26,984 bases of DNA from a virus (Duplodnaviria; Caudoviricetes). Each line of letters opens with the position of its first letter. The stretch's first letter is position 1. Location: positions 1 through 26,984 of IMG/VR virus record IMGVR_UViG_3300010052_000185; one strand, 5' to 3'. The notes beneath the pieces were generated by a model, which was given only the letters and a program-made list of their open reading frames with translations, was not told the origin of the DNA and did no database searches. The position numbers were made by a program, and so were the translations under genes. Shown one piece after another: positions 235-25,039 of the stretch.

Positions 235-271
235 GGCGCGGATGCTGGTGGGCATCCGAAGCGCCCAGCAA
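235..271 (+). promoter_or_regulatory. Conserved bulged stem-loop element, copy 1
   Basis: GGCGC-GGATG-ctggtggg-CATCC-GAA-GCGCC-cAGCAA, lying between stop 231 and SD AAGGAGAGGA (271-280); 30/37 identical to 25003-25039. Confidence 0.75.
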
Positions 272-283
272 AGGAGAGGAACG

Positions 284-724
284 ATGGCGAAGCGTGGATT
301 TGGTGGTCTCAAGGCAAGCCTGCGCCGCCTTTCCGGTGCAAACCTCAGGGCGATCGGTAGCGGTCGGCAATCGCTGGGGATGACGGCGTCTATTGCTGGA
401 ATGTTTATGCCGCCTGGCGCTGGCGCTGTTGTCAGTGGCCTGGGGGCTCTCTATGCCGTGACTGGTGCCGTCAAGACCTATCAGGGCCATAAGTTGATGG
501 GTGCGGCGGATCGGGCCGTGCGCATCGAGAAGATGCGACAAGCGCGCTCCGGCGTGGCAGCAGGCGCGGCGAAGCGGTCTGGACGGGCCATCCAGGCCAG
601 CAACCGCACGGGCGGCCGTCGCGTCGCGGCTGCGACGCCTCAGGGCTCGAACGGTTCGGTCAAGGGCTATTACCGCCAGCAGGGCGGCAAGAGCGTGTTC
701 GTGCAGGGCTACTCGCGGGCCTAA
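284..724 (+). CDS. Basic 146-aa hypothetical protein with Gly/Ala-rich hydrophobic segment and C-terminal VKGYYRQQGGKSVFVQGY tag
   Basis: ATG 284 with strong SD; 24 K/R versus 2 D/E; hydrophobic stretch SLGMTASIAGMFMPPGAGAVVSGLGALYAVTGAV. Confidence 0.85.
   Translation: MAKRGFGGLKASLRRLSGANLRAIGSGRQSLGMTASIAGMFMPPGAGAVVSGLGALYAVTGAVKTYQGHKLMGAADRAVRIEKMRQARSGVAAGAAKRSGRAIQASNRTGGRRVAAATPQGSNGSVKGYYRQQGGKSVFVQGYSRA
646..711 (+). repeat. 66-bp direct repeat copy 2
   Basis: 61/66 identical to 153-218. Confidence 0.95.
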
Positions 725-726
725 CC

Positions 727-775
727 CCGAGCGGATGCGGCGAGCGTGAGCGAGACGTGGGCATCCGAAGCGAGG
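727..775 (+). promoter_or_regulatory. Conserved bulged stem-loop element, copy 2 (expanded loop)
   Basis: GCGGATGC (731-738) ... GTGGGCATCCGAAGCG (757-772); same stem and GAA bulge as copy 1 with a longer loop; abuts SD GAGGA (772-776). Confidence 0.7.
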
Positions 776-783
776 AAAGAAAC

Positions 784-969
784 ATGGGGTGCAGATGTGG
801 AGAGCGCGCGAACGCGATCCGCGACGCTGCCCTTGCCATCGCGCGAGGTGACTCACAGGCGGTCGCTGAGGCCGCTCGCTTCGTCGCCCGCACTTCGGCC
901 GAGGATCTGAAGCACGGCGCCCAGGCGCTCAAGATCAAGGCAGCGGCGCGGCTCGGCCTGAAGCGGTAG
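784..969 (+). CDS. Small hypothetical protein (61 aa, starts MGCRCG)
   Basis: ATG 784 with SD GAGGA; Ala-rich helical sequence; fits the operon spacing. Confidence 0.75.
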   Translation: MGCRCGERANAIRDAALAIARGDSQAVAEAARFVARTSAEDLKHGAQALKIKAAARLGLKR

Positions 970-986
970 CGCCAAGGAAAAGTCCA

Positions 987-1688
987 ATGGGCTACACGCC
1001 GCGCTCGGGCTGGGGAGCAAACCGCAGCTACAAGTCGGCGGCTCATTACAACGCCGCGCGCGCGTCTCGCGGCGATCACATGTCGGGCGGCGTGTCGATC
1101 CACATCGATGCGCACAAGATCGAGCATCTGCGACGCGCGCTGATCGACGCCGGCACGGGATACAAGCGCGCCGAGGTCATTCTCGCGCAGTCGCTCAATC
1201 GGGCGGGCCAGCGTGTCGGCACGCAACTAAAGCGCTTCATCAAGCACTGGACCGGCATTCGCCGCTTCCAGGAAGTGACCAAGCGCATCAAGCCTGTCAT
1301 CGCGTCGGCCGGGAATATGCGGGCTGGCGTCACGGTGAGCGGTCGGCATTTCCGCGTGACGAAGGCGGACTTCGGCGCGAGCTGGCGGCCAGGGTCGGCG
1401 GGCGGCACGCACAAGGCGTGGAACCGGGGGCAGGTAGCGAAGGGCTCGTTCATGCCTCGCCGGTTTACCGGAGGGAGCGCATACGGCGGGGGGCTCCTGT
1501 TCACGCGAACGAGTAAGGCACGTCTTCCGATCAAGCCACTGTGGGGGCCGAACCCTGTCCGAGAGATGCAGCGTCACGCACCCATGTGTCGCGCCATCGT
1601 GAGGAAAGAGGCGAATTGGTTTCTGCGCGAGAGCGTGCGCCGTGCCGAAGTCGAGTTGAAGAAGGCCAAGGCCAAGTACGGTCTCTGA
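987..1688 (+). CDS. Lambda gpZ-like minor tail / tail completion protein
   Basis: Basic protein with SLNRAG near the N-terminus and LFTRTSKARLPIKPLWGP, matching the gpZ-family pattern; SD AAGGA upstream. Confidence 0.65.
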   Translation: MGYTPRSGWGANRSYKSAAHYNAARASRGDHMSGGVSIHIDAHKIEHLRRALIDAGTGYKRAEVILAQSLNRAGQRVGTQLKRFIKHWTGIRRFQEVTKRIKPVIASAGNMRAGVTVSGRHFRVTKADFGASWRPGSAGGTHKAWNRGQVAKGSFMPRRFTGGSAYGGGLLFTRTSKARLPIKPLWGPNPVREMQRHAPMCRAIVRKEANWFLRESVRRAEVELKKAKAKYGL

Positions 1689-1797
1689 GTGCAAGCGTCG
1701 CGCGTTGTGACGGGGGCGGGCGTGGGGCGTCACCCTATCCCATGCGCATGCACCTCTAACACGCGAACGACGAAACTCAACGCCGTTCAAATCGCAA

Positions 1798-1852
1798 GGT
1801 ACCTTCTGGCCTCGTTTTGCCTGCGGGCGCCGCTGCGCGCGAAAACTCGCTA
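1798..1852 (+). other. Putative cosQ/cosN packaging site (lambda-like)
   Basis: GGTACCT (1798-1804) ... TGCG|GGCGCCGCTGCG|CGCGAAAACTCGCTA parallels lambda GGGTCCT ... TACG|GGGCGGCGACCT|CGCGGGTTTTCGCTA, and lies just upstream of terS. Confidence 0.65.
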
Positions 1853-1869
1853 GGTGAGGTTCAAAATTG

Positions 1870-1974
1870 TGACTTCCCATGATTCCCATGGGCGATTGTC
1901 AACCTCGAAAACGCCCGCAAACGCTGGGCTTTCACGCTGGGAAGTCAGATGGGAAGTCAGGCCATTGATTCCCA
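1870..1974. repeat. cosB-like cluster of direct/inverted repeats (TGACTTCCCA / TGGGAAGTCA)
   Basis: TGACTTCCCA 1870-1879; its exact reverse complement at 1938-1947 and 1950-1959; variant TGATTCCCA at 1880-1888 and 1966-1974. Confidence 0.75.
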
Positions 1975-2545
1975 AACCGTGTGGGGAAGCCGGCAAGAAT
2001 GCGCGGATGCCCTAGGGATCGGGCGTCGACGGGTTGGTCAGTTGATCGAAAAAGGGGTGATTACCGAGACCGAGTTCGGCATCGATCTCGACAAGGCGAA
2101 GGGCGAATACGAGCGGAAGACTGATCAGGCGAAGCGAACTGCATATGGAAATCGCCCTGATCGCCGATCGGCAAGACATCCGGCAAAAGCGAAAAGCGCA
2201 CCCAAGACAAGGCGACCTTCTTTCGCCGGTAGTGGAGCTGCAGCCGACGAGGACGATCAGCCGGATATCTTCGACGACTATAATGTGGCTCGAGCGCGGA
2301 AAGTTGCCGCTGATGCTGAGCGGTCGCGCCTCACCGCTGATCAAATGGCCGGCAAATTGGTTTCGCGTGATGAGGTGCGCGAGAAAGAAGCGGCTATCGC
2401 GCGGGTCTTACGGGATCGCATTCTCGGGTTCCCTGCTCGTGTTGCCAACCTGATCCCGTTGGAGGCGATGAAGTCTTTGACAGAAGAATGCGAGCAGTTG
2501 GTGCGTGAGCTCCAGGAAGCAGCCAGCATGATCGCCGAGGGTTGA
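1949..2545 (+). CDS. terS: Terminase small subunit (Nu1-like)
   Basis: N-terminal HTH-like SRQECADALGIGRRRVGQLIEKG, coiled-coil C-terminus with GKLVSRDEV; directly upstream of TerL. GTG 1979 is an alternative start. Confidence 0.85.
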   Translation: MGSQAIDSQTVWGSRQECADALGIGRRRVGQLIEKGVITETEFGIDLDKAKGEYERKTDQAKRTAYGNRPDRRSARHPAKAKSAPKTRRPSFAGSGAAADEDDQPDIFDDYNVARARKVAADAERSRLTADQMAGKLVSRDEVREKEAAIARVLRDRILGFPARVANLIPLEAMKSLTEECEQLVRELQEAASMIAEG

Positions 2546-4410
2546 TGCAAGGTTACACTTGCGGGTGGCGCATAGGACTTGAGCTTCCGCCCAAACGAAC
2601 GATCTCGCAGTGGGCCGATGAAAAGCGTTTCATCGCTCGCGGCACGGGTCCAGAGCCTGGTCGCTGGCGCACTGATCGGCTACCGCTTCTGCGTGAGCCG
2701 ATGGATTGCGTCCACGAGCCGAATGTCGACGTGGCCGTTTTTATGTGCTCGTCACAGGCGGCTAAGACCGAGTTGCTGATTAACATCTCGGCATTCTTCG
2801 TCGACCAGGATCCGGCGCCGCAGATGTTCGTGCTGCCGACGTTAGAGCTCGCCGACAGTTTTTCTACAAAGCGCTTCACACCGACGATCGAGGAAACACC
2901 GGCGCTATTTGACAAAGTCGGGCGATCGGCATCTCGTGACACGTCGACGACCATCCGGGAAAAGAGCTATCCAGGCGGCGATATCGTATTTGCCGGCGCC
3001 AATTCACCCGCAAGCCTAGCGTCTCGTCCTCGACGCGTCGTCCTCATGGACGAAATCGACAAGTATTCGGCGTCGATCGGGCATGACGGCGATCCTATCG
3101 ACCAAGCGTTTCAGCGCACTCAGAACTTCTGGAACAGGGTGCGTGTGCTAGCTTCGACGCCGACACTCCATGGGCTATCGGCCATCGAGAGTTGGTTCGC
3201 GCGATCTGATCAGAGACACTGGCACGTCGCTTGCCCGCACTGCGGTGCAGATCAAGCTCTTTCCTGGTGGTCGGGCGAAGAAGATGATCGCGTCTGCAAC
3301 GTTCGATGGGAAAAGGGCCACCCCGAAACGGCGCGCTATCATTGTATCCATTGCGATGAACCGTGGGACCAACGCCAACTTGCGATCGCGAGCGTCGACG
3401 GCGAGTGGGTACCGCACAATCGTGAGCCCACGAAGATCCGTGGCTATCACTGGAACAGTCTCTATTCACCTTGGGTGAGCCTTGCCGATCTCGCTTCAGC
3501 TTGGGAAGCTGCGGAGGGCATCAGTGAGAAAGAGCAGACCTTTGTAAACCTGAAGCTAGGGCTGCCCTATAAACAGACCAGGGGTGCGCAGACGACCGTT
3601 CAAGCGCTTTTCGATCGGCGCGAAGACTACGGTCCGAACCCAGCGAATGGCACCTACAGCGACACGTTCAAGGTGCCTGAGGATGTCGTCCTCATCACAG
3701 CGTTCGTTGACGTGCAGGCCGATCGCTTCGAGGTGCAGTATGTCGGCTGGGCGCCCAACGAGGTTAAGTGGGTTCTCGACTACAGGGTGCTCTATGGCGA
3801 TCCCACAGACCCAACTGCATGGCGCCGGCTAGATGAAACCCTTCTTCGTTTGTCGTTCGCACACCCGATTGCTGGCGCTCTTGAGATAGCTGCCATCGGG
3901 ATCGATGCCGGCAACTGGCAGCAAATCGTTCTTGAATTCGTTCGCACGCAGCGAGAGGCGTTCCGCCCCTTCTATGCGATCAAAGGCAAGGAGGGTTTCG
4001 GTCGCCCGCTGTTCCACGAGTCATCGGACAAGTTCAAGCTTGGTGCCAAGCTCTACATTTCCGGCGTCGACGACGGCAAGACGATGACCATGCAGGAACT
4101 CGCGGCGAGACCTGATCCGAAGACCGGTGATGGGAAGTACCGGGTGCATTTTCCGCGACATCTCGAGCTTTCATACTTCGAGATGCTTCTGTCGGAGCGC
4201 ATCAAAGTCGAGTATCGGGCCGGTCGCGCAACGCCGAAGTGGGTGAAGATCAAGGATCGGAACGAGGCATTCGACACATTTGTCGGATGCATAGCCGTTC
4301 GATACTCGCCCCATTGCAAGGGCATCGATCTGACCGTTCTGCGAGAGCAGATGACCGGTCAACGCAAGGAACTGAGCGGTGGCGACCTTGCTGCCTTGTT
4401 CAAACGGTGA
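2545..4410 (+). CDS. terL: Terminase large subunit, lambda GpA family
   Basis: SQWAD..R, EPGRWRTDR.P, Walker A-like SSQAAKT, Walker B VVLMDEID, STPT, CPHC..C..C, VDVQADR, IDAG, RNEAFD; TGATG overlap with terS. Confidence 0.95.
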   Translation: MQGYTCGWRIGLELPPKRTISQWADEKRFIARGTGPEPGRWRTDRLPLLREPMDCVHEPNVDVAVFMCSSQAAKTELLINISAFFVDQDPAPQMFVLPTLELADSFSTKRFTPTIEETPALFDKVGRSASRDTSTTIREKSYPGGDIVFAGANSPASLASRPRRVVLMDEIDKYSASIGHDGDPIDQAFQRTQNFWNRVRVLASTPTLHGLSAIESWFARSDQRHWHVACPHCGADQALSWWSGEEDDRVCNVRWEKGHPETARYHCIHCDEPWDQRQLAIASVDGEWVPHNREPTKIRGYHWNSLYSPWVSLADLASAWEAAEGISEKEQTFVNLKLGLPYKQTRGAQTTVQALFDRREDYGPNPANGTYSDTFKVPEDVVLITAFVDVQADRFEVQYVGWAPNEVKWVLDYRVLYGDPTDPTAWRRLDETLLRLSFAHPIAGALEIAAIGIDAGNWQQIVLEFVRTQREAFRPFYAIKGKEGFGRPLFHESSDKFKLGAKLYISGVDDGKTMTMQELAARPDPKTGDGKYRVHFPRHLELSYFEMLLSERIKVEYRAGRATPKWVKIKDRNEAFDTFVGCIAVRYSPHCKGIDLTVLREQMTGQRKELSGGDLAALFKR

Positions 4411-4416
4411 GAAGCG

Positions 4417-4665
4417 ATGCCAGAACCTGCTCCGGATTGCGCGAACGAACTGCGCAAGCTTTACGACGCCATCATGGCGCTGCAGAGCGGCCAGCGCGCA
4501 GTTCAGATGGGTTTCGGAGACCGGCAGGTTACGTTCGGTGGCACGCAGCTCAACGAATTGAAGCAGATGTACTCCCTGTTTTACCGCCAATGTGGCGCAG
4601 ACAGTGGCCTGCTTGATCTGTCCAAAGCCGTTCAACGCGGCCCGCCTGCCACCGCGCGCTTCTAA
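4417..4665 (+). CDS. gpW-like head-tail joining protein
   Basis: 82 aa between TerL and portal; helix-hairpin-helix pattern ALQSGQRAVQMGFGDRQVTF. Confidence 0.8.
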   Translation: MPEPAPDCANELRKLYDAIMALQSGQRAVQMGFGDRQVTFGGTQLNELKQMYSLFYRQCGADSGLLDLSKAVQRGPPATARF

Positions 4666-4674
4666 GGGGCATTG

Positions 4675-6321
4675 ATGTCGGAAGATCTGGACGTTGCACC
4701 CGTCGCGCCGCAGAGCACGACGTTGCCGGCGGCTGTCACGGCGTCGGTCGAGCGCGCTTATCGCGACGCGAAGATAACCGGCGGCGGCGAGCTCGCGATG
4801 TGGCGGCCGAGAAATCTGTCGGCTGACGCGGCAATTCTTCGGGATCACAAGCTGATCCGGGCGCGTGCGCGCGATTTGGTGCGTAACGATCCTATCGCGA
4901 AGAATGCCGTGCGCATGAACCGCGACGCGGTTTCGGGTTCAGGTCTGAAACTTGCGCTTCGGATCGACTGGCAGACACTCGGCTTCAAAAATATCGCCGC
5001 AGCGAACGAGTATCAGGACCAGATCGTTCGAGAGTGGGAAGCATACGCCGAGTCCATCGAATTTCAGTCAGATGCACGCCGGCAGCGCACGTTCTCGCAG
5101 ATGTTTCAAACGGTCGATCAGACCGACTTCGTCGACGGCGAGAGCCTTGCTATTCTCGAAATGAAGCCCGGCGTCGGCGCCTATTTGACGTGTGCCAATC
5201 TGATCGACGTTGACCGGCTCGAAAACCCGACCGGCGTAATGGACTCAAATCAGGTCCGCGGCGGAATCGAGCGTGATATCTACGGCGAGCCGATTGCGTA
5301 TTACATCCGCGACGGGCACCCGGCGGACGTGGGTCTCGGTGCGAGCCTCGCATCTCTGACGCACAAACGCGTTGAGCGCATGTTCCCGTGGGGCAGGCCG
5401 ATCGTCCTGCATACCTTCGATCACACTCGACCCGAGCAGACGCGCGGTGTCTCCGAATTCGCCGCGGCGATCGTCCCGATGCGTATGTTGGGGCAGTACA
5501 ACGATACAGAACTGCAGACTGCCATCACCCAGGCCGCATTCGCCGCCGTCATCAAGACGGAGGTCGATTGGTCGGCGGCAATGCAAGTCCTCGGCACTCA
5601 GGCCCGAGGAGAAAATGGTGTTTGGGAGATCGCGAAAGCGCATCTCTCGAACGCAGCGGAATATTACGAAGGCCGCGACATCACCTTCAACGGTTCGAAG
5701 ATCCCGCATTTGCTCCCCAATGAGAGCCTCGATGTCCTTCGCTCTACGCACCCGAACGCCAATTTCGAGGCGTTCGAGAGCGCCTTCATCCGAAAGCTTG
5801 CCGCAGGCCTCGGTGTGGAAGCGCACGAGCTCGGCAAAAACTATCGCGAGGTCAACTACTCGGCCGCCCGTGCTGCGCTTGAAAGCGTGTGGCGCACATA
5901 TCGCGCTCGCAGAACGCGCCTCGTGACGCAATTTGCTATGCCGTTTTTCGGTGCATGGCTCGAAGAGGCAGTCGACCTGGGAACTGTCCTGCTTCCGCCA
6001 GGACATGACAATTTCCTGGCCATCCGGCCGTATCTCGTCAAGGGCACCTTTATCGCTTGGGGTAAGCCGAAGGTCGATCACTACAAGGAACGCCAGGGCG
6101 AACAGCTCGGCCTTCAGATGGGCGTTGAGACGCTAGAGGACATTGCCGCCAATGATGGACGTAGCTGGCGCGAGGTGCTCGAGCAGCGCGCCTATGAGCG
6201 CAGCACCATGATCAATCTGGGGCTCGATCCCGACGGAACCGGACCCGAAATGGCCGGCTTACAAGGCGTCCCGGACGAAGCCGGAGAAAATAGCAACGAC
6301 AAGAGGGACGCAGCAGAATGA
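4675..6321 (+). CDS. Portal protein, lambda family
   Basis: RARARDLVRND, FVDGE, RPEQTRGVS, VNYSAARA motifs; about 548 aa; position in head module. Confidence 0.95.
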   Translation: MSEDLDVAPVAPQSTTLPAAVTASVERAYRDAKITGGGELAMWRPRNLSADAAILRDHKLIRARARDLVRNDPIAKNAVRMNRDAVSGSGLKLALRIDWQTLGFKNIAAANEYQDQIVREWEAYAESIEFQSDARRQRTFSQMFQTVDQTDFVDGESLAILEMKPGVGAYLTCANLIDVDRLENPTGVMDSNQVRGGIERDIYGEPIAYYIRDGHPADVGLGASLASLTHKRVERMFPWGRPIVLHTFDHTRPEQTRGVSEFAAAIVPMRMLGQYNDTELQTAITQAAFAAVIKTEVDWSAAMQVLGTQARGENGVWEIAKAHLSNAAEYYEGRDITFNGSKIPHLLPNESLDVLRSTHPNANFEAFESAFIRKLAAGLGVEAHELGKNYREVNYSAARAALESVWRTYRARRTRLVTQFAMPFFGAWLEEAVDLGTVLLPPGHDNFLAIRPYLVKGTFIAWGKPKVDHYKERQGEQLGLQMGVETLEDIAANDGRSWREVLEQRAYERSTMINLGLDPDGTGPEMAGLQGVPDEAGENSNDKRDAAE

Positions 6322-7796
6322 CGGATCTCGCGCGTCTTTCATCTCTCATTTTCAACCGCGTGCACTGGATCCTTCCATCGCAGGCCGAGGCCATTCTCGC
6401 TGTGCTTGATGGCAGGGTTGGCGGCGATCTGCGTATGAGCCGGTTCGAGGGTGAAGCGGCTATCTCTCGTGAAGGACGCTGGAAGGGCTATCAGGTTACT
6501 CCCCGCGGCACCGCGATCGTTCCTATCGTCGGGGAACTGGTCAACCGCGGAGCGTACCTCGGCGCAAGCAGCGGCCTCGTTTCGTACGAGGGCGTTCGGC
6601 AGCAGCTCAAGAACGCAGCAAACGACCCGGCAGTTCGCGCAATTGTCCTCGACATCGACAGTCCTGGCGGAATGGTAGCTGGCTGCGCGGAAACGGCCGC
6701 CCTGGTGCGCGACGTTTCAAAAACCAAGGCCGTGGTGGCCTGCGCAAATTCGGATACGTGCTCGGCCGCTTACGCTATCGCATCGGGAGCCAATGCAATC
6801 GTTGCGACAGAGTCGTCCCGCGTCGGTTCGATCGGTGTTCTCTTTGTGCATGCGAACCGCGCCCGCGAACTCGACAAAAAGGGCGTCGATGTAACGATCT
6901 TCCAGGGTGGGAAGCACAAGACCGATGGGCACCCCTTCGGCCCGCTCTCTACTGAGGTGGCCGCCGAAATCCAAGGAAACATCGACGCTCATTACGACGC
7001 GTTCGTGAAGCTCGTTGTCTCCGGTCGCCCCCAGATGTCCGAGCAACAAGTTCGCGACACCGAAGCGCGCGTTTACCGCGGCGCCGATGCCGTGGCTCAC
7101 GGTTTAGCCGATTACGTCGGCACATTCGATCAGGCCGTCGCTCTAGCCGAGTCCGGTCAGGTACCCCGAAGAACGCAGGAGAGCCGGTCTAGCGTGCCTG
7201 CGCCCGTCAACAGCCCGCCGCAGAAGGTTGCGGCCAACAGAGGAGCATCCGGCATGGATCTCGCCGCCCGCGAACCGAATAGCGGCTTCGAAAGCATGAC
7301 TGTCGCTGAGGTCACTCAGGCCGTAGCCGCATTGCGGGGAACGCTCAACATGGAAGAGCCGGTTGCCACGGCGCAGCCAGCCGTTGCCGTGCCGCAGCAG
7401 CAAGGCACGCAGCCTGAGCCGCCTAAGGAAAAGCTCGAGACAGCCGACCAGGCTATGGCTCGTGGCCGCGAAGAGGAGAAATCCCGCATTAAAGGAATTC
7501 TTGCACTGCCGGAAGCAAGGGAGCGCCCCCTTGCGGCTCTCGCTCTGGCGATCGAGACGGACATTCCTGTCGCTAGTGCGGAGGCCACGCTCGCAAAACT
7601 TCCGGCCGAGGCGCAGCAGGTAACACGTAGCGGCGGGGGATACCTCCAGCGCGCTATCGAGGCGAACGGCGGTTCTCCCAAGGTCAGCCACCTAACACCC
7701 GCCGCCGACGTCGGCAAAGCGTCGACGCTTGGCGCTTCGATGGATCGGTTGCTCGCGAAGACGCAGCCGCCGCGATCAGCCGCGAAGGCCAGCTAA
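6318..7796 (+). CDS. S49-family prohead protease (lambda gpC-like) with C-terminal scaffold
   Basis: IVLDIDSPGG, CSAAYAIAS, VGSIGV, GKHKTDG; C-terminal GREEEKSRIKGIL is Nu3-like. Confidence 0.93.
   Translation: MTDLARLSSLIFNRVHWILPSQAEAILAVLDGRVGGDLRMSRFEGEAAISREGRWKGYQVTPRGTAIVPIVGELVNRGAYLGASSGLVSYEGVRQQLKNAANDPAVRAIVLDIDSPGGMVAGCAETAALVRDVSKTKAVVACANSDTCSAAYAIASGANAIVATESSRVGSIGVLFVHANRARELDKKGVDVTIFQGGKHKTDGHPFGPLSTEVAAEIQGNIDAHYDAFVKLVVSGRPQMSEQQVRDTEARVYRGADAVAHGLADYVGTFDQAVALAESGQVPRRTQESRSSVPAPVNSPPQKVAANRGASGMDLAAREPNSGFESMTVAEVTQAVAALRGTLNMEEPVATAQPAVAVPQQQGTQPEPPKEKLETADQAMARGREEEKSRIKGILALPEARERPLAALALAIETDIPVASAEATLAKLPAEAQQVTRSGGGYLQRAIEANGGSPKVSHLTPAADVGKASTLGASMDRLLAKTQPPRSAAKAS
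7254..7796 (+). CDS. Nested in-frame scaffold protein (Nu3-like)
   Basis: In-frame ATG 7254 preceded by SD AGAGGAG (7239-7245) with an 8-nt spacer, right after the protease domain linker. Confidence 0.65.
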   Translation: MDLAAREPNSGFESMTVAEVTQAVAALRGTLNMEEPVATAQPAVAVPQQQGTQPEPPKEKLETADQAMARGREEEKSRIKGILALPEARERPLAALALAIETDIPVASAEATLAKLPAEAQQVTRSGGGYLQRAIEANGGSPKVSHLTPAADVGKASTLGASMDRLLAKTQPPRSAAKAS

Positions 7797-7837
7797 ATCG
7801 CGTCCCAACGACAACCTCGAACCTATAGGAGGGCCTG

Positions 7838-8527
7838 ATGGCCTTGAGAACAGCAACCTACAACGAGCCCGACGCGCTTTCGGACTTTCTTAAGTTTGAG
7901 ATGGCGCAGGAATACTGCCGGGACAAGGTGACCATACTCAGCGGCGAAGGCGCACTCGACGTCAATACGCTGCTCGGCCAAATCACTCTCGGTGCCGCAT
8001 CGTCTGGCGCCAAAAGCGGCGGCAATACTGGCAACGGCACTTTCGTTCTCGACAATACGACGCCGATCCTCGCAGGCGCGGCCGCTGGTGTTTATCGCGC
8101 GCGGTTCGTCACGACGACGAGCGTTCGCCTCGAGGATCCGGACGGCAAGGTGTTGGGCGATATCGCCATCGGCGGCAGCACCGGCAACAGCGCAACCGTG
8201 CAGGAGCACATCAAGGGTGTGCTCACGCAGGGCGCCACCCCGTTCGCAGCCGGCGACGGCTTCGACATCACGATCGCCGAAGGCTCGTTGAAGTATCGCA
8301 AATGCGTGCTGGGCAATCTGGACGGATCGGCCGTAGCCGCTGGTGTGCTTTGCCACGCCGCAGACGCGACGAGTGGAGACGTCGCTGCGGTGGCCGTGGT
8401 GCGCGGTCCGGCTATCGGTGGCAGGCTCGGCCTCAAGTTCGACGCTTCGTTCGACAGTACGGCAAAGAAAAACAAGGCGGTCTCCCAGCTCGCCGCGCGG
8501 GGAATTGTGGTCCGCGATAGCGCGTAA
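7838..8527 (+). CDS. Head decoration protein (gpD-like, with inserted beta-rich domain)
   Basis: Between protease and capsid; YCRDKVTI, TLLG.IT, DGS..AAGVL, QLAARGI; SD AGGAGG. Confidence 0.85.
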   Translation: MALRTATYNEPDALSDFLKFEMAQEYCRDKVTILSGEGALDVNTLLGQITLGAASSGAKSGGNTGNGTFVLDNTTPILAGAAAGVYRARFVTTTSVRLEDPDGKVLGDIAIGGSTGNSATVQEHIKGVLTQGATPFAAGDGFDITIAEGSLKYRKCVLGNLDGSAVAAGVLCHAADATSGDVAAVAVVRGPAIGGRLGLKFDASFDSTAKKNKAVSQLAARGIVVRDSA

Positions 8528-8550
8528 CTCTTCAGTTCACCAACCGCCAG

Positions 8551-8590
8551 CGGCGTCGAAGTCTCCCGACTCGGCGCCGTTTCCATTTCC
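8551..8590 (+). other. Intergenic hairpin between decoration and capsid genes
   Basis: CGGCGTCG-a-AGTC-tccc-GACT-CGGCGCCG followed by TTTCCATTTCC; weak terminator or processing/stability hairpin. Confidence 0.5.
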
Positions 8591-8635
8591 GCGCCGCTCT
8601 CGCGGCATCGACAACCCAACCAAGGAGAGACGCCA

Positions 8636-9682: not shown

Positions 9683-9710
9683 TAAAGCAGCTCCCAATCG
9701 TACGACCCCA

Positions 9711-9734: not shown

Positions 9735-9763
9735 CGCATCCCGTTCAGAATGGAGAGTTTTCT

Positions 9764-13638: not shown

Positions 13639-13648
13639 GAGACATAAA

Positions 13649-16283: not shown

Positions 16284-16289
16284 GCGAAT

Positions 16290-17543: not shown

Positions 17544-18584
17544 ATGGCGACGGAATTCGTTTCGGTCATAGCGGGCGGCTTCGAATACAGCGGCTGGACG
17601 CGATGCTCGTGGTCGGCAGCGATCGACGAAGCATGTCGTTCGTTCCAAGTGGATACAACCGAGATCCCTGGCGAATTTTCTTTCCCGCCTGGAACGCCGA
17701 TCACGCTGCTCGCGACGGGAAGCCTGATCTGCAACGGTTACGTGAACCGCTATCATTCGGGCGGCGGCGCGAAGCGCCACAGGGTGAACATCGCCGGCCG
17801 CAGTAAGGCACAGGATTTCGTCGACTCGTCGGCCGTCCATCCAACCGGGCACGCGAAGGACAAGACGGCCGGTGAATTCGCGTCGGAACTCGACAAGTTC
17901 GGCGTCGGCATCAATGCGAAGGTGCCGTTGCCGAAGATACCGATGCAACAGCTCAAGCAGGGAGAGCGCTGTTTTCGCTGCGTCGAGCGTTACCTGCGGT
18001 CGAGCGGCGCGACCCTCATGGGGGAGCCTGACGGTTCGATCTCGATCACCAACGCGTCTGTGGCGCAGCGCGCGGCCGGTGCGTTGATCGAGGGCGTCAA
18101 CATCCTCGAATGGTCCGTCGATTTCGACGACCAGAACCGCATGAGCGAATACACGGTCAAAGGCCAGAACCGCCACGGCTCGGGCGCCGAAAACCTGCGC
18201 ATCAAGGAAATGGCAAACGACGGCGGCGTTAAGCGCTATCGCCCCCGTGTCATCGTCCACGAGAGCGATACGGACAAGAGCCGGGCGCGTGATCGCGCCA
18301 ACCACGAGAAGGAACGCTGCGCAGGGAACGGCACCAAGGCGACTGTGACTGTTCAGGGATGGCGCGACGATGCCGGCAAGCTCTGGACGCCAAATACCAT
18401 CGTGTTCGTGCAGAGCCCGATCCTGATGCACCTGGTGCAGGACATGCTCATAGAGAAGGTCGATGCCGATCAGGACGACAAGAGCGGCACGACGGCCGTT
18501 CTCAGTCTCGTCGATCCGCGCGCTCATCGCGGCCAGGGCCAGAACGGCAAGGGTAGCGCCGGTTCGTGGAACGAGGGGTTCTAA
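17544..18584 (+). CDS. Baseplate hub protein (Mu gp44/gpP-like)
   Basis: G..YSGW, GRSK..D.VDSS, R.SEY.VKGQ, V.RYRP, TVQGWRD..G.LW.PN. Confidence 0.92.
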   Translation: MATEFVSVIAGGFEYSGWTRCSWSAAIDEACRSFQVDTTEIPGEFSFPPGTPITLLATGSLICNGYVNRYHSGGGAKRHRVNIAGRSKAQDFVDSSAVHPTGHAKDKTAGEFASELDKFGVGINAKVPLPKIPMQQLKQGERCFRCVERYLRSSGATLMGEPDGSISITNASVAQRAAGALIEGVNILEWSVDFDDQNRMSEYTVKGQNRHGSGAENLRIKEMANDGGVKRYRPRVIVHESDTDKSRARDRANHEKERCAGNGTKATVTVQGWRDDAGKLWTPNTIVFVQSPILMHLVQDMLIEKVDADQDDKSGTTAVLSLVDPRAHRGQGQNGKGSAGSWNEGF

Positions 18585-19313
18585 ATGCCTATCACGCGCG
18601 TACCGCACTATGCCGAGGATGAAGACGGCAGCCTTCTCTCGCATGACAAACTGCTGCGCATGAGAGAGAAGAACCGCGAGTCCAGTGATTGGACGAACCG
18701 CGTCGTGCGCAGTCTCAATCAAGGGACACAGGATTCCTTGGGTGATGACACACTGTGGGAGGGCCGTGATACGGCCCGCGATCCGGATGGCGCACCGCTT
18801 CCGAAGGACAAAGGCATCCAATGGGAAGCCGAGCGCGATGCGCCCTACATGTCCACCGACGAGTATCAGTTCAAACAACACTATCGGCCGCATTTTGCCG
18901 ACCCCGCTTCTCTCTCCACAGGCAAAACGATGAACTACGATGCCGACGTCGACATGGGTCGCAACGTCACGCGGCGCGTCGAAGTGATCGAAGTCGACGA
19001 CAGCGGGCCTATCCAGATGGTCAAGTGCATGGGCCTCGCGGACGAATACTTCGAATTGCCGTTGCGCGGACAGCCGCACGGCTTCACCGGCAATCCTCGC
19101 GTGGGTGCGATCGGTTACGTGATGATGGCGAACGGCCGCCCGGATCAGGCCTTCCTCATGGGGCTCGAGCATCCCGACGACCGCAAGAAAGACCGCGAGG
19201 CGGGCGAAACGACGATGTACGCCTCCCCTGGTCAGGAGATCAATGGCGACAAGGACGGCAACTGGGTCATCAAATCCCAGGGCGGCGGCACGGTTCATAT
19301 CAATCCGCTCTGA
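18585..19313 (+). CDS. Baseplate spike protein (Mu gp45-like) with long N-terminal extension
   Basis: C-terminal half VDDSGPIQMVK..GLADE, QPHGF..NP, GET.MY; SD GAGGGG before ATG 18585. Confidence 0.85.
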   Translation: MPITRVPHYAEDEDGSLLSHDKLLRMREKNRESSDWTNRVVRSLNQGTQDSLGDDTLWEGRDTARDPDGAPLPKDKGIQWEAERDAPYMSTDEYQFKQHYRPHFADPASLSTGKTMNYDADVDMGRNVTRRVEVIEVDDSGPIQMVKCMGLADEYFELPLRGQPHGFTGNPRVGAIGYVMMANGRPDQAFLMGLEHPDDRKKDREAGETTMYASPGQEINGDKDGNWVIKSQGGGTVHINPL

Positions 19314-19570
19314 TGCCGCTCATCGCTCGGCTGGGAGACACCAGCACACACGGCGGCGCCATCGTGACGTCCGCCAGCAAGAGCCTCTGTGAAGGCGCAC
19401 TGATTGCCCGCAAAGACGACATCCTGAACTGTCCGATCCATGGGCCCAACCCGATCGTCGGACATTCGCAGAAGATGCTCTGTGAGGGCAAGCACGTGGC
19501 TCGCCATGGAGATCTCACGGCTTGCGGCGCGGCGCTGATCTCTGGCGCCACCAAAACATATGACGAATGA
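19313..19570 (+). CDS. PAAR-domain spike tip protein (85 aa)
   Basis: Three PAAR-like repeats IARLGD, IARKDD, VARHGD with HGG, CPIHG and CGA.LI; TGATG coupled to the spike gene. Confidence 0.93.
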   Translation: MPLIARLGDTSTHGGAIVTSASKSLCEGALIARKDDILNCPIHGPNPIVGHSQKMLCEGKHVARHGDLTACGAALISGATKTYDE

Positions 19571-19576
19571 GGCCTG

Positions 19577-20179
19577 ATGCTCGTCCGTAAGCGCGACACA
19601 GAAGGGTGCGAGCGGCAGCCGCAACTCGTGTGGGACTCCGTTTGGGTTCAGAGGCTCGATGCGACTGGCGGATATGCCGACTGGATACTTGCGGGCGAAG
19701 GCGACCAAGTCGAGAGCCTGGGCGGGCTGCGAGCTGAGGCGGCACTTCATACCGCGACTCTGCTCATCCTCATGACGGACGCACGAGCGCCGGATGATCT
19801 TGATTTGGCTGGCGGCGATGACGATCGGCGCGGCTGGTGGGGCGATTCCCTGAAACTCGACGGAGAGCCCGAGCAGGCGCTGGGCTCGCTCATCTGGACG
19901 GAAGTCGAGCGCGGCATCGCCAGCGATGAAACGGCGGTCAGCGTTCGCGACTATGCGCTCGAGGCGCTCGCGGTGCTGGCCGAGCAGGGCGCAGTCGCGG
20001 AAACGCAGGTCGAGACAGAATTGCGCCAAGACCAAGGCTTTCTCGGCTTGATCGTGCGGCACTTCGATCATTCCGGCGCGCGCATCTACGACCAGCGTTT
20101 CGCGGTGCTGTGGGGTGAGACACGCCGCAACGCTCCGATGAACTTCGGCGATCAGGGGGTTTTTGCTCATGCCGTTTGA
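19577..20179 (+). CDS. Baseplate protein, Mu gp46-like
   Basis: L.TA.LI.LMTDARA, RRGWWGD, LGSLIW, YA.EALA.L. Confidence 0.92.
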   Translation: MLVRKRDTEGCERQPQLVWDSVWVQRLDATGGYADWILAGEGDQVESLGGLRAEAALHTATLLILMTDARAPDDLDLAGGDDDRRGWWGDSLKLDGEPEQALGSLIWTEVERGIASDETAVSVRDYALEALAVLAEQGAVAETQVETELRQDQGFLGLIVRHFDHSGARIYDQRFAVLWGETRRNAPMNFGDQGVFAHAV

Positions 20180-21251
20180 GACGCCGACACTGAAGGCTCT
20201 CGCTGAGCGATCCGCGCGCGCTTTCCGGTCAAACCTGAAAGGCTCGGACGCCTTTCTCTGGCCGAACAACCTGGCGGTGTCTGCCAAGGTCATAGCCGGC
20301 GCGGTTTGGGAAGCGTTCAGCTTCCTCAACTACATCTCGCGCCAGATCCTTGTTCACACCGCGACCGACCCCTATTGGATCGAGCGGCACGCCGCCGAGT
20401 ATGGCATGTCGCGCCTGCCGGCCACCTTCGCCGTCGGCAAGGCGACGATCAGCGGTGACACAAACATCACGGTTCCCGCTGGCATCATCCTGCAGCGCGC
20501 CGACGGCGTGCAATACGAGGTCACGGAGAGCGGCTCGACGAGCGGCGCTGGCAGCATCGACTTATCCGTGCGCTGTCTCACTGCGGGAAAGATCGGCAAC
20601 GCCGCATCCGGTGTCGGCCTCGCCATGACCGTGCCCATGAGCCGGCTGAACACGGCCGCTGTCGTGGCGGCGAGCGGAATTGGTGCTGGTGCCGACACGG
20701 AGAGCACGGAAAGCCTTAGGCAGCGCGTATGGTTCCGGAAGCGCATGCCGCCGCACGGTGGCGCCGTGCATGATTACGTAGCCTGGGCGCGCGAGATCAA
20801 CGGCGTGACGCGGGTGTACGTCGACCCCGTCACGGCCGACAACGGACGGTCTTCGGTCGGCGTGTGGTTTCTGATGGACACGTCCTATCCGAACGGCATC
20901 CCACAAGGCGCCGATGTGTCAGCGGTCGCCGCTTACATCGACACTGTCCGGCCGGCTGGCGCGCTTGTTGAAGTCGCGGCGCCTGTGCCTTCGCCGGTAG
21001 ATATCGAAGTCGCGCTATCGCCTGACACCGGCGCCGTCCGTGACGCCGTCCGGGCTGAAATTCTCGACATGCTCGATCGCGAAGGGCGCGTTTCGACGTC
21101 GACATCGCCATTCATCCTCTACCGATCGAAGCTGATCGAGGCGATCTCGATCGCGACCGGCGAGGACCATCACGAGCTCGTCGCGCCAGCCGATGACGTC
21201 GAATTCGCAACCGGCGAGCTACCAGTGCTCGGCACCTTGGAGTTCGCATGA
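20169..21251 (+). CDS. Baseplate J-like wedge protein (Mu gp47)
   Basis: MPFETPTL, G..GN, GAD.ES.ESLR.R, PPHGGA..DY..WA, RPAGA, LPVLG. Confidence 0.93.
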   Translation: MPFETPTLKALAERSARAFRSNLKGSDAFLWPNNLAVSAKVIAGAVWEAFSFLNYISRQILVHTATDPYWIERHAAEYGMSRLPATFAVGKATISGDTNITVPAGIILQRADGVQYEVTESGSTSGAGSIDLSVRCLTAGKIGNAASGVGLAMTVPMSRLNTAAVVAASGIGAGADTESTESLRQRVWFRKRMPPHGGAVHDYVAWAREINGVTRVYVDPVTADNGRSSVGVWFLMDTSYPNGIPQGADVSAVAAYIDTVRPAGALVEVAAPVPSPVDIEVALSPDTGAVRDAVRAEILDMLDREGRVSTSTSPFILYRSKLIEAISIATGEDHHELVAPADDVEFATGELPVLGTLEFA

Positions 21252-21973
21252 GCTGCGAAATAGCGGGCGAGCGGCCGTTCTTCTGCCCGACGAAATGGCA
21301 ACTGTGGCAGCAGATTATTTCGCTGCTTCCACGCGGCCGCGCGTGGCAAACGCACGAGCACGGCACTGAGCGCATCGTCGCGAGCGAGTCCAGCCAACTC
21401 GGTATCTACGAACTCGGCTCGACCGGGCTTGGCACCGAGCCTGTCGTCGAACGCCTTTCGGTGATGCAGCAGTTCTGGGCGGCCTACGCCGAGGTGCTTG
21501 AATATCTGCATCAGCGCGCCTGCGCCTTGCTCGAGGAATTCTTCTGTTCGACTACGCGCGAGCTTCGCATCGAATGGGGTCGCGAATATGGCTTTCCCGA
21601 CGAATGCGAGCCCTGGGACACTCTTTGCGACAAGGTGAGGTCGACGGGTGGCGCGACCTGCGCCTACCTCGCCGCGCTCGCCAGCCGCAACGGCTGGCAC
21701 GTCGAATGTCAGGATTGCGCGAACACGCGGATGGCTCTTGCCGACGCGGCCGTCGCGGACTGCACGCCTCTCGATTGTGAGTGCGAGGCGGCCGTCATTC
21801 GCATCCGCATCATCACGGAACTTAGCCCGGCATGGACGCGCCCAGTGCCGTTTAACGCAGACGCCGCTGTGGCGGACTGCACTCCTCCTTGCCCGCCTGT
21901 CCCTGACATCGTGCGCTGTCTGATCGAGCGCTGGAAACCGGCTCATGTGCGAGCCATCTATGAGGTGATCTAA
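21248..21973 (+). CDS. Baseplate wedge protein, Mu gp48 / YmfQ (DUF2313)-like, Cys-rich
   Basis: LLPRGRAW, TT.EL..EW..EYG.PD.C, C.IER.KPAH; 15 Cys. Confidence 0.88.
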   Translation: MSCEIAGERPFFCPTKWQLWQQIISLLPRGRAWQTHEHGTERIVASESSQLGIYELGSTGLGTEPVVERLSVMQQFWAAYAEVLEYLHQRACALLEEFFCSTTRELRIEWGREYGFPDECEPWDTLCDKVRSTGGATCAYLAALASRNGWHVECQDCANTRMALADAAVADCTPLDCECEAAVIRIRIITELSPAWTRPVPFNADAAVADCTPPCPPVPDIVRCLIERWKPAHVRAIYEVI

Positions 21974-22941
21974 TGCCCGGCACGAACATTTACGGTCCGC
22001 ACGGTCCTGGTATCAACGAGACGACCACGCGGCCTCCACAGACGGATTCCGAGTCCAGCGCCGACTCTTGGTTCGGCCCCTGTGTCGACAACGATCCCAA
22101 CACCGGAACGAAGATCAGCTACCGCTGGCTGAACTTCATCACCGCTAACTTGCGACGCGCGATCCGCGGCATGGGCGTGGCTGAGAACGAAGTCGATGAC
22201 GACATGCTGCTCAAGGCCATCCAGGCCGCGCAATCCAATCTCAGCCTTGCAGGCTTCCTCAACCTGCCGATCTTCCCGGAGATTCAGAACAGCAACGGCC
22301 TTCTCACGTTCGCCACGTCGACAGGGCAAGTCGTTATCAACAGCGGTCTGACGTTCCTGCATCGCGGCCACCGTCTCTACTCGACAACGAGCGACTTCGA
22401 CGCTGCGGCGCGCACGTTCGCGACCGCCCAGAGCAAGACATATCATCTTCGCTGGTACCCGCCGGGGCACGCGAACGCCAACCCCGGCACCTATCCCAAG
22501 GGCCGCTTCATGCTGCGCGATCTTGCGGACGGCTCGTACAACGCAGGCGCGGGCGCCGAAGGTCTGGAAGCGTTCGATACCGCCTACGATGACATGCTCG
22601 TCGCCCGGGTGGTCACCAACGCCGGCAACGTGCCGACGGTGACGCCGCTGGTCAACAAGCATACGCTGCAGGGCAGGTTCACCGGTTCTCTTGTAAGCGG
22701 CGGCACGCCGGTCAACGGCTTCTCGGCGCCCTGGACAGTTACGCACAACTGGGCGCGTACGCCAAAGGTGCTCGAGCGCCTTCGTCAAACCCAATTCGAG
22801 GAGGGATTTGGCGGCACCATGGATTGGGATACCTGGACTACGCTGACCACGAATACTCGATACATCTCGGCCGGCGTTTGCGGGCATGACATCGCGCGCG
22901 CTAACACGACGTTCTACGTCGATCTTCTCGCGGTTGCCTGA
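21973..22941 (+). CDS. Tail fibre / side-fibre protein 1
   Basis: N-terminal anchor-like GT.I...WLN.I..NL......DDDMLLKAI; directly after the gp48-like gene. Confidence 0.7.
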   Translation: MPGTNIYGPHGPGINETTTRPPQTDSESSADSWFGPCVDNDPNTGTKISYRWLNFITANLRRAIRGMGVAENEVDDDMLLKAIQAAQSNLSLAGFLNLPIFPEIQNSNGLLTFATSTGQVVINSGLTFLHRGHRLYSTTSDFDAAARTFATAQSKTYHLRWYPPGHANANPGTYPKGRFMLRDLADGSYNAGAGAEGLEAFDTAYDDMLVARVVTNAGNVPTVTPLVNKHTLQGRFTGSLVSGGTPVNGFSAPWTVTHNWARTPKVLERLRQTQFEEGFGGTMDWDTWTTLTTNTRYISAGVCGHDIARANTTFYVDLLAVA

Positions 22942-22976
22942 TCGCTTTCCCTCAACTTCATCACGGAGACTAGCAG

Positions 22977-24404
22977 ATGGTTGCCTGGGGATTCGACGGC
23001 GCCCATGGAACGGACATCCGGCCGCCGCACGTTCCGGCGACGATGCCGTGGGCGAAGGACGAGTCCGTACCTGGCGGCAACGACGGCACGAGGCTGACAG
23101 CGGCGCTCGTCAATCGCCTGATCGGAAACATCCGCGGGCTGGCGCTGGCCGCGGACGTGACGTTGACGGAGGACAGCGACGCCGATCTCACGACGGCAAT
23201 ATCGGCGTTGATCGGGCTTGTCGCTCCGGCGGCGCATGAGCACGATGATAGGTATTACCTTGAAAGTGAGGTCGACGCGCTGCTCGCCGGACTGCAGGAG
23301 ATCGGCCAGAAGGGCCTCGCGAACGGCTATGCCGGTCTCGACGGGTCCGGCAAGGTGCCGACGGCGCAGCTTCCGGACGCCGTGCTTGGGGCGATGGCTT
23401 TCCAAACCCTCTGGAATGCCTCGACGAATACGCCGGCGCTCACGAGCGGCGCGGGCACGAAAGGCCACTATTATATCGTCGATGCAGACGGCACGACGGC
23501 GCTCAACGGCATCTCGGATTGGAAGGTCGGCGACTGGGCTGTCTACGACGGCACTGCCTGGCGCAAGATCGACAACACGGACGCGATCGCCGCGGTTGCC
23601 GGTCTCACCGGAAACATTTCCGCCGCGTCGCTGAAGACAGCCCTCGAGATTACGGTTGCAGATATCACGAACGCATCGGCGAACGGTCGCAGCCTGATCT
23701 CGGCGGCGGATTACACAGCGATGCGTACACTGCTCGCGGTCGTCGCGACGGCCGATATCGTCAACAATCTAACGACCAACGACGCGCTGAAGCCGCTTTC
23801 GGCGGCACAGGGCAAGGCTCTTAAAGACCAGTTCGATGCATTTTCGGCTTCGTCCATTTGGTCCTCGCAGCCAATCGGCGTACCTATCCCGGTCGCGTCG
23901 AACCACTTCGCGAGCCTTTCCGCGGCCCTTCCGCCGACCGACAACCCTGCATTCCGATACGTTCTGCTGACGGCTGGCGAGGCAGATTCCGGCGAATACA
24001 ACGAAGGCATTCTGACATCCGAGAGTGTCAGTGGCTCGGCTCCGCTCGTCCAGGCGACCGGCGTCGTTTCGCTCAGCGGCTCACTACTCAACGGTAAGAC
24101 GATCCGCCTGATCAACACGGAACGTCGCTTCCTGCGCGCGGGCAGTGTCGGCACTGTCGAAAACGACCAGATGCAGAAAATCACGGGTTCTGTCGGCTTC
24201 AATCGCACGGCTGTCGCCAATGTCGATGGAGCAATAATTGTCGGCGGCACGCCTGGTTCTAGCGCAGCGGCTTCTGGTGCGCTTGCAACAGGCTCATTTG
24301 CTATCGACAGCTCGGCTTCACCGTCTGCGAGAGCATCTTCGACGACGGACGGAGAAACCCGCTCGAAGAACATCGGCATGACCTACATCATGAGGCTCAA
24401 GTGA
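22977..24404 (+). CDS. Tail fibre protein 2 (receptor-binding)
   Basis: Anchor-like N-terminus; KG.ANGYAGLDGSGKVP..QLP; collar/tip-like PIGVPIP...FLRAG...DQMQKITG...ETRSKNIG..YIMR; SD GGAG. Confidence 0.88.
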   Translation: MVAWGFDGAHGTDIRPPHVPATMPWAKDESVPGGNDGTRLTAALVNRLIGNIRGLALAADVTLTEDSDADLTTAISALIGLVAPAAHEHDDRYYLESEVDALLAGLQEIGQKGLANGYAGLDGSGKVPTAQLPDAVLGAMAFQTLWNASTNTPALTSGAGTKGHYYIVDADGTTALNGISDWKVGDWAVYDGTAWRKIDNTDAIAAVAGLTGNISAASLKTALEITVADITNASANGRSLISAADYTAMRTLLAVVATADIVNNLTTNDALKPLSAAQGKALKDQFDAFSASSIWSSQPIGVPIPVASNHFASLSAALPPTDNPAFRYVLLTAGEADSGEYNEGILTSESVSGSAPLVQATGVVSLSGSLLNGKTIRLINTERRFLRAGSVGTVENDQMQKITGSVGFNRTAVANVDGAIIVGGTPGSSAAASGALATGSFAIDSSASPSARASSTTDGETRSKNIGMTYIMRLK

Positions 24405-24946
24405 TGGCCTACTACGCAAAAGCTCCCGATCAGCTTTCGAGCGATCCGCTGCCTGGCGGTGTCGAAATCTCGAAAGCCGACTATCTTGCTGCAATCGACG
24501 TGTTGAGCGATCCAGACGACGCGCGGGTGATCACGATCACCGAAGGCGAGTTTTCGTTGGCGCTTTCCCCTGAGCCCGAACCCGTTGAGCCCCTTCCGCC
24601 AACTCAAGCGGACCTTAACGACTACGCCAACACAAAGTATGCGGCCCAAATGGCGGGCGGCGTGAACATCGGCGGCGTGTGGGTTTCGACCACCGGCAAC
24701 GGGCGCGTCGACATGCTCGGCGCCGTCTCGCTGGCGCAGCTTGCGCCGGAGCACGTCTTCGATTGGGTCAACGGGGCAACCATCATCCAGCTAACGGCCG
24801 CGCAAGTGATCGCTTTGGGTCTCACCGTCGGTGCGTGGGTGCAGGACAACTATACGATCCTCGGCGCTGTTCGCGCCGACATCGCGCTGGGCAACATCAC
24901 GACGACGGCTGAGATCGACGCAGCCGCGTGGCCGAGCAACACGTAA
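24404..24946 (+). CDS. Tail fibre assembly chaperone (DUF4376-like)
   Basis: L..YA......GGV.I.G..VST, W.....IQLTAAQVIALG..V..WVQ, ITT.AEIDAA.W; TGATG coupled to fibre 2. Confidence 0.8.
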   Translation: MAYYAKAPDQLSSDPLPGGVEISKADYLAAIDVLSDPDDARVITITEGEFSLALSPEPEPVEPLPPTQADLNDYANTKYAAQMAGGVNIGGVWVSTTGNGRVDMLGAVSLAQLAPEHVFDWVNGATIIQLTAAQVIALGLTVGAWVQDNYTILGAVRADIALGNITTTAEIDAAAWPSNT

Positions 24947-24969
24947 GCGATCCTTACAACTTGGGGTGT

Positions 24970-25002
24970 GGGCTGGTGCGAGAGCGCCGGCCCTTTTTAT
25001 TT
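24970..25002 (+). terminator. Rho-independent terminator between tail and lysis modules
   Basis: GGGCTGGTGC-GAGA-GCGCCGGCCC (10 bp, two G-U, GNRA loop) followed by TTTTTATTT. Confidence 0.88.
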
Positions 25003-25039
25003 GGCGCGGTTGGCTCTGGGCAACCGAAGCGCCGAGCAA
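25003..25039 (+). promoter_or_regulatory. Conserved bulged stem-loop element, copy 3
   Basis: GGCGC-GGTTG-gctctggg-CAACC-GAA-GCGCC-gAGCAA; 30/37 identical to 235-271 with a compensatory A-T to T-A swap; precedes SD GGGGGA of the endolysin. Confidence 0.75.

Follow-up and report, generated by a model that had tools for sequence, protein, structure and literature searches.

Three hairpins of a phage genome as copies of an intergenic repeat dispersed in Hyphomicrobiaceae and a sister family

The complete virus record IMGVR_UViG_3300010052_000185 (Caudoviricetes; 26,984 nt, referred to here as the window) carries the same bulged hairpin three times, twice behind genes for basic proteins and once before an amidase gene. 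What are these hairpins, and do they serve the phage? The original prediction, made from the letters of the window, took them for a structured cis-acting RNA in gene leaders that links the basic-protein array to the lysis gene. The comparison with host genomes gives a different answer. The three hairpins are copies of a dispersed intergenic repeat from Hyphomicrobiaceae and a sister family, where it reaches 0-229 cores per genome. In the explanation that we favour, with a probability of about 0.6, they represent a strand-polarised host repeat, probably acquired from the host by a likely temperate phage, which likely spreads at replication forks in the form of a hairpin of single-stranded DNA. 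The hairpins are probably not a phage RNA switch.

A repeat dispersed through host chromosomes

Copies 1 and 3 (Table 1) are identical at 30 of 37 positions. As originally described, two of the differences form one compensated A-T/T-A pair in the inner stem, and the remaining ones are mostly in the loop (four in the loop, one in the tail). Copy 2 has the longer interior that was predicted (24 nt vs 8 nt, a difference of 16 nt), but a degenerate outer stem. All three copies are real; however, gene ends have been duplicated over 93 nt (82% identity), and copies 1 and 2 are both part of this block. They therefore represent one site, which makes two independent sites in the window rather than three. 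This duplication spans the shared C-terminal codons of the two basic proteins plus the start of the repeat. A 15-nt core, searched with at most 2 mismatches, has the three copies as its sole matches in the window. A covariance model built from 67 host copies alone recovers copy 1 with 52.5 bits (E 5.6e-13), copy 3 with 39.0 bits (E 4e-9) and copy 2 with 16.5 bits (E 0.01), the next-best match in the window scoring 13.3 bits.

In the repeat unit, an outer stem of 4-5 bp and an inner stem of 6 bp are separated by a purine bulge of 3 nt; the interior ends in GTVG, and the stems are followed by a tail rich in A. The bulge reads GAA in 230 of 239 units, and compensated variation is seen at three outer pairs and one inner pair. 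The interior varies from 6 nt up to nested hairpin modules of more than 150 nt. Units are arranged in head-to-tail arrays of up to about 10, and the intergenic regions are mosaics of exchangeable modules. The three-base spacers are GNA triloops in 66 of 139 cases, with all four types represented; in the low-GC family most of the listed spacers are not GNA. This low-GC family (L499-L504) shows intergenic scaffolds of several purine-rich same-strand modules, swapped between relatives. Elsewhere (G033, L289:1650-2960), repeat arrays are found within and beside a fragmented rtcB gene.

The covarying, loop-length-tolerant single-strand hairpin of the original prediction is borne out by an alignment of 67 host copies. 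Here 94.2% of 670 cells are paired, and 72 cells show a double change, compared with 23.9 +/- 3.6 in shuffles (0/500). Since the 67 rows are related and were chosen for having both arms, the significance of this covariation is overstated. A pseudoknot between loop and tail, hinted at by copies 1 and 3, was considered and rejected, since inspection of other copies by eye showed no covariation between the two parts.

A scan of the genome collection found 123 loci in 19 of 64 parts. By our own count, 109 of these loci are titled Hyphomicrobiaceae, Hyphomicrobiales or unplaced Alpha-/Proteobacteria and 14 belong to other groups; about 8 loci of other phyla are still included in the 239 units above and in the 84 arrays discussed below. 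The core is present in 82 of 151 genomes of the family, with at least 10 cores in 17 of them, and is absent from 69; controls have 0-3. Among 301 genomes of the order, 8 contain 21-229 cores and the others 0-5. Most of the richest genomes fall in the second (sister) family, comprising 14 genomes with 41-50% GC. The original prediction had named, as an outcome that would count against it, a known host repetitive extragenic palindrome (REP) or Rfam element spread through the chromosome. The repeat is indeed dispersed through host chromosomes, but no named REP that could be checked matches it. The viral scan produced 84 matches, 25 of which have a complete inner stem; the other 59 lack the stem and were discarded as chance matches from the first scan. 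One locus inside a T4-like gene (L009) was excluded, alongside two near-identical loci that were not separately inspected.

Filled and empty alleles exist, and orthologous sites turn over. At one junction compared across 16 genomes, G004 has the element, with a stop codon inside its tail, G040 holds the tail and inner modules, and 14 genomes are without the element.

The repeat is also polarised along the chromosome. In the complete chromosome G002, the minus strand carries 73 of 80 cores, whichever side of dnaA they are on, and the sites are 26 minus-only, 3 plus-only and 3 mixed (one contig-end duplicate site merged). GC skew is positive in 20 of 20 sampled windows of this chromosome, therefore the element is on the C-rich strand. 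The contigs of G606 give ratios of 23:1, 47:1 and 1:27 among the matches listed (100 of 197); 99 of the first 100 matches listed for G494 agree with the strand of their contig, as do 27 of 28 over 1.16 Mb in G443. Among 20 regions picked for cores, 2 were tied; the strand that bears the element is the C-rich one in 16 of the remaining 18 and the A-rich one in all 18. Along G066:C4 the element strand switches together with the skew. Polarity is weaker in 6-kb loci (47 vs 24), and some genomes, for example G004, are mixed within contigs.

Two further observations concern the 4.47-Mb chromosome of G002 (G002:C1). The skew, sampled in 15-kb windows around the chromosome (L262-L281), ranges from 0.016 to 0.112 without change of sign and is lower from 0.8 to 2.6 Mb, as if the chromosome were replicated one way; we found no paper on one-signed skew in Hyphomicrobiaceae. 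In addition, the same cobD gene with a repeat copy occurs at 23.6 kb and at 4,452 kb (L417, L433), which suggests an untrimmed terminal assembly overlap of about 43 kb.

One explanation of the polarity is selection. The repeat may be a polar chromosome signal, acting in fork restart, priming, translocation or nuclease control, which prophages copy in order to resemble host DNA. Near-perfect polarity across megabases and a GC-rich stem maintained in genomes of 41-50% GC are consistent with this possibility, as are the GNA spacers, since GNA is described in the accessible part of PMC13037366 as a motif of stable DNA mini-hairpins found at priming sites. However, the 69 coreless genomes of the family, copy numbers between 0 and 229, the clustering of copies in arrays, the turnover of orthologous sites and the mostly non-GNA spacers listed for the low-GC family speak against it. 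We regard a selected signal as quite unlikely.

Gene context in hosts and phages

Does the repeat act on the gene that follows it? In the window, as predicted, the three copies are intergenic, all on the plus strand, and end 18-24 nt 5' of an ATG, and the first base of copy 3 is directly 3' of the T-tract of a terminator-like hairpin. All called window genes are on the plus strand, so that any intergenic element in the window sits upstream of some ribosome-binding site. In the host genomes, the predicted cis-acting leader finds no support, because orientation tracks the chromosome strand and not transcription, and in other phages the repeat is often antisense. A regulatory leader is expected to be sense and 5' of a coherent set of genes. 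The 32 sites of G002 include 14 convergent, 1 divergent, 7 sense, 9 antisense and 1 mixed, and the neighbours of the copies share no function, being housekeeping genes in either orientation. The 84 host arrays are distributed likewise: 23 convergent, 8 divergent, 13 sense, 16 antisense, 17 in a called open reading frame (ORF) and 7 unresolved. The stop codon of an antisense gene adjoins 36 of 196 terminal host copies. The context of the 84 arrays and the counts of start codons given below were obtained with our own simple gene caller.

A small self-cleaving ribozyme or riboswitch could explain why unpaired bases are conserved (GAA in 230 of 239 units, and GTVG) around a variable insert. However, the Rfam check, which the original prediction had called for, gave no match, either in the window or in five loci rich in the element, the orientation is independent of transcription, and the neighbours have no common function. 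Such an RNA is very unlikely.

Neither is the link between the basic-protein array and the lysis gene supported. It would take the form of a phage-specific operator, bound by the basic proteins and tying their array to lysis, and two copies do come after basic-protein genes and one before the amidase gene. However, the two former copies belong to one duplicated block. The basic-protein family has matches in just 5 of 401 family genomes and was not found in the repeat-rich G002 and G012, the match in G003, also repeat-rich, being weak (E 3e-5). Moreover, none of the four loci of this protein family scanned with the covariance model has the repeat, and a related amidase locus is without the element. 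The basic proteins are unlikely to be partners of the repeat, and of all the explanations considered here we find the operator the least credible.

In phages the copies are often antisense to late genes and flank them. G402 has 7 cores in 52 kb, 6 of them on one strand. The provirus G403 has 22 cores, 9 on the plus and 13 on the minus strand, and the 13 lie opposite its late genes. With the covariance model, 24 distinct matches (E <=6e-5) are found in G403 between 8.8 and 30 kb (about 21 kb); almost every one is at a gene junction, and inverted pairs are frequent among them. A strict subtype pattern finds 7 of the 7 loci of a 627-kb contig in its first 27 kb (five were checked and are identical to G403), and 5 of the 6 loci of a 652-kb contig in its first 15 kb, among phage-type genes. 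This enrichment, seen with one strict subtype pattern, suggests that the repeat bloomed inside a prophage. The element pair of G403 has no match in GenBank phages. Some copies lie inside called phage ORFs, apparently in frame. For example, three antisense 39-nt units are found, apparently in frame, within the tail chaperone gene of G403 (L342:18114-18233), and L537 and L542 contain similar intragenic copies.

Close phage relatives of the window phage are scarce: its terminase matches are only 28-33% identical, and a metagenome protein scan confirmed no close relative. In L475, the nearest phage that was found (neck protein 64%), both the small ORF and the neck gene of the window are present. 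This phage has no cores at all, but contains 9 copies of an unrelated repeat, including copies 5' of the small ORF and of the neck gene. The original prediction had named a lack of positional conservation among homologues as an outcome against it, and at these junctions L475 lacks the element. The unrelated family of L475 (positions 330-5680) has its 9 copies on both strands and fills junctions, with several copies directly before start codons.

What remains in favour of a function in phages comes from the start codons. An in-frame ATG follows the terminal copy within 25 nt in 17 of 56 cases in phages vs 8 of 196 in hosts, and the purine-richer GAAGG variant is present in 13 of the 17 phage copies that precede an ATG vs 13 of the 39 others (p 0.004). 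These data are consistent with a surviving form of the earlier idea, namely that phages have exapted a host-derived repeat as a cassette for translation initiation or mRNA processing, the next gene being tuned by a host factor that binds the RNA hairpin or cuts it. The 24 model matches of G403 at gene junctions, the same placement at two unrelated phage loci (L543 and L550) and the sense orientation of 3 of 3 window copies point in the same direction. On the other hand, the counts are not independent, a single phage lineage contributing many of them; genes are densely packed in phages; and the gene caller is simple. In G403, 13 of the 22 cores are opposite the late-gene strand. The window copies are of the GAAGC type and their three ribosome-binding sites are outside the predicted hairpins, and L475 has an unrelated repeat at the same junctions. 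Taken together, exaptation appears unlikely to us.

Folding strand and mobilisation

In the favoured explanation, that of a host repeat spreading as a single-stranded DNA hairpin, copy-in would act on single-stranded DNA at the replication fork, via some enzyme. By the usual skew convention, the lagging-strand template would be the T-rich complement of the written strand, which would parallel the top-strand insertion of IS200/IS605. In phages, selection presumably spares only those insertions that are in frame or at gene junctions. The exposure of both strands during phage replication would explain both the mixed orientation and the local blooms. Sense copies before an ATG would be retained where a ribosome-binding site is left in place or provided by the tail. 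An effect on the mRNAs of the window, if any, would be a side effect, such as 3'-end stabilisation.

Several observations weigh against this explanation. First, on the written strand G-T pairs outnumber A-C pairs by 39 to 7, and 22 of the 39 are at a single position next to the bulge; in regions chosen for holding cores, 53 of 72 units have G-T as their first inner pair. This suggests that the C-rich strand folds, and not the lagging template. The GNA spacers also favour the written strand as the folding strand, although the low-GC family is mostly without them. If the written strand folds, the polarity would arise because copies exposed on the lagging template are lost, and not from a bias of insertion. 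The assignment of leading and lagging strands from skew is itself a convention. Second, there is the phage-side excess of sense copies directly 5' of start codons, in counts that are not independent. Third, the host of the window phage is read from the repeat alone. Fourth, no enzyme has come forward. The core is absent from all Y1/RAYT loci (0 of 52), although draft genomes could miss one, and RAYT was above cut-off in just 4 of 28 genomes or records searched, with none in the complete G002. Small GIY-YIG loci contain the core in 3 of 39 cases and relaxase loci in 1 of 30. IS91-type genes occur in 6 of 14 high-copy and 4 of 11 zero-copy genomes, without correlation. Finally, there is no fixed target or tag at the foot of the repeat, and neither target duplications nor clean boundaries of insertion could be made out. 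The four bases at the 3' foot (408 cases) are CAAC in 70, CAAG in 44, CAAA in 40 and CACT in 27, and the 5' foot is variable too.

Y1/RAYT, GIY-YIG, IS91-type and relaxase genes were all rejected as mobilisers, and no other candidate was found among the genes between arrays, 142 ORFs near sites and 45 prophage ORFs. A long autonomous parent was not seen either: the 5' arm is missing within 60 nt in 6 of 390 cores, none of them 3' of a transposase gene. The single relaxase case among the 30 loci, which had prompted the relaxase search, is in G002 (L423:1979-2180), where three units lie upstream of a mobC-relaxase pair, at a place where a transfer origin might be expected. As for the small GIY-YIG genes, many (L248-L254, L437-L466) are flanked by CGTC-type repeats. 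They are candidate partners of the CGTC repeats, a class reported without a dedicated transposase.

A more specific picture can be offered tentatively. The repeat may be an untagged head-to-tail hairpin parasite with strict fork polarity, mobilised by an enzyme outside the Y1, Y2, GIY-YIG and MOB-relaxase groups, which blooms to about 1 copy/kb in some temperate phages and serves there, at gene junctions, as a portable ribosome-binding cassette. The family is tractable for the search for a mobiliser, given its fork polarity, its filled and empty alleles, its 0-229 copies among relatives and its prophages with about 1 copy/kb. The repeat also provides a marker by whose sequence phages can be assigned to Hyphomicrobiaceae-like hosts. 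More generally, it is a warning that a covarying hairpin in front of a phage start codon can be a host repeat. For the window alone the finding is modest, namely two independent insertions without shown function.

Window genes and known systems

The genes of the window encode terminase, portal, head protease, decoration and capsid proteins, a contractile tail and an amidase. The fragment is without an integrase, and relatives of the phage indicate that it is likely temperate. The terminator-like pattern before copy 3 occurs once in the window vs 1.2 expected from shuffles, so the match by itself is weak. A neck or tail-completion gene (987-1688) lies upstream of the terminase genes rather than in the head-tail module, an order also found in G402, G403 and L475. 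The two tandem basic proteins have a C-terminal motif in common, and comparable basic C-terminal tags are common to several head-module proteins of G403 and also occur in L336-L338 and L341. Such shared tags are possibly capsid-targeting tags of internal head proteins. P0001 has no informative match in Atlas, and two matches to it were judged spurious.

Table 1. Positions of the repeat copies and neighbouring features in the window
Feature	Position	Strand	Description
Repeat copy 1	235..271	+	outer stem 235-239/261-265, inner stem 240-245/252-257; GTGG at 248-251, GAA bulge 258-260, A-rich tail; begins 4 nt after the stop of ORF 1-231
Repeat copy 2	727..775	+	same core, 24-nt interior, degenerate outer stem, bulge 767-769
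Repeat copy 3	25003..25039	+	T-A inner-stem variant, bulge 25026-25028; between terminator T-tract and amidase gene
Basic protein P0002, 3' part	1..231	+	truncated by contig end; without Pfam or PHROG family
Basic protein P0001, 146 aa	284..724	+	unnamed family of at least 21 clusters; C-terminal motif in common with P0002
61-aa ORF 3' of copy 2	784..969	+	homologue in phage locus L475 (44% over 41 aa, E 5e-8)
Amidase endolysin 3' of copy 3	25053..26237	+	Amidase_2 and PG_binding_1
93-nt duplication, first copy	153..245	+	partner 646-738; 82% identity
Intrinsic-terminator-like hairpin and T-tract	24970..25002	+	hairpin 24970-24993; closes tail-fibre genes

Some known systems resemble the repeat in architecture. 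The RIME, motif C and BRU-RS elements of rhizobia are intergenic mosaic elements of exchangeable hairpin modules. The likeness to the mosaic intergenic regions found here is one of description, and the repeat may prove identical with one of these modules, but its core is at background level in most of the 301 order genomes. The attC site of integrons is a bulged single-strand hairpin with a variable terminal part, located just after small ORFs. In contrast, the neighbours of the repeat are housekeeping genes in either orientation. No integrase was found among the 142 ORFs near copies, no dedicated integron search having been run.

A second comparison is with IS200/IS605 elements, whose insertion is biased to the lagging-strand template according to the accessible part of PMC5027513. 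As described there, orientation is linked to replication direction, and an imperfect hairpin is the likely recognition element, both of which are also properties of the repeat. Unlike these elements, the repeat has no transposase gene between or beside its ends and no constant target tetranucleotide. A Y1 transposase gene with the same ends as the repeat was not found in the Y1/RAYT loci examined.

The closest likeness is to REP sequences. The accessible part of Di Nocera 2013 (PMC3733652) describes GTAG-tagged REP repeats and bacterial interspersed mosaic elements (BIME) with RAYT, as well as CGTC-tagged repeats of Alphaproteobacteria, and treats the spread of REP-like repeats without RAYT as an open question. 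Like the GTAG-REPs described there, the repeat is a short imperfect palindrome, multi-copy, extragenic and clustered. It is placed at 3' ends or between convergent genes (in G002, 14 convergent, 17 unidirectional and 1 divergent of 32), may provide the stop codon of a neighbour, and has complementary stem variants and variable loops. Also, the E. coli REP beside rayT has the CGGAT...GCATCCG stem core in common with it. However, the repeat is without an unpaired tag at its foot, since GTVG is inside the loop, and without an adjoining RAYT. A permuted register in tandem arrays would place GTVG at the foot, but single copies are not of that form. The replication-strand polarity and the phage blooms of the repeat are not described in the accessible part of PMC3733652. 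The chromosomal copies form mainly head-to-tail arrays, and inverted pairs are common in provirus G403. With the CGTC repeats (same source and part) it shares alphaproteobacterial hosts, the absence of a known dedicated transposase and a short CCA-like tail; it differs in having no CGTC terminus and in not being mainly inverted dimers. CGTC-type repeats occur separately in the same genomes, around small GIY-YIG genes. Because the tests for tag and RAYT failed, the repeat was not filed as a GTAG or CGTC REP. Hyphomicrobium is not named in the accessible text and supplements of PMC3733652, the comparison excluding its family consensus figures, and no description of this repeat was found in the open-access literature, most subscription papers being outside our reach. 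As judged from descriptions rather than consensus sequences, the repeat apparently represents an undescribed, replication-polarised family of REP-like elements.

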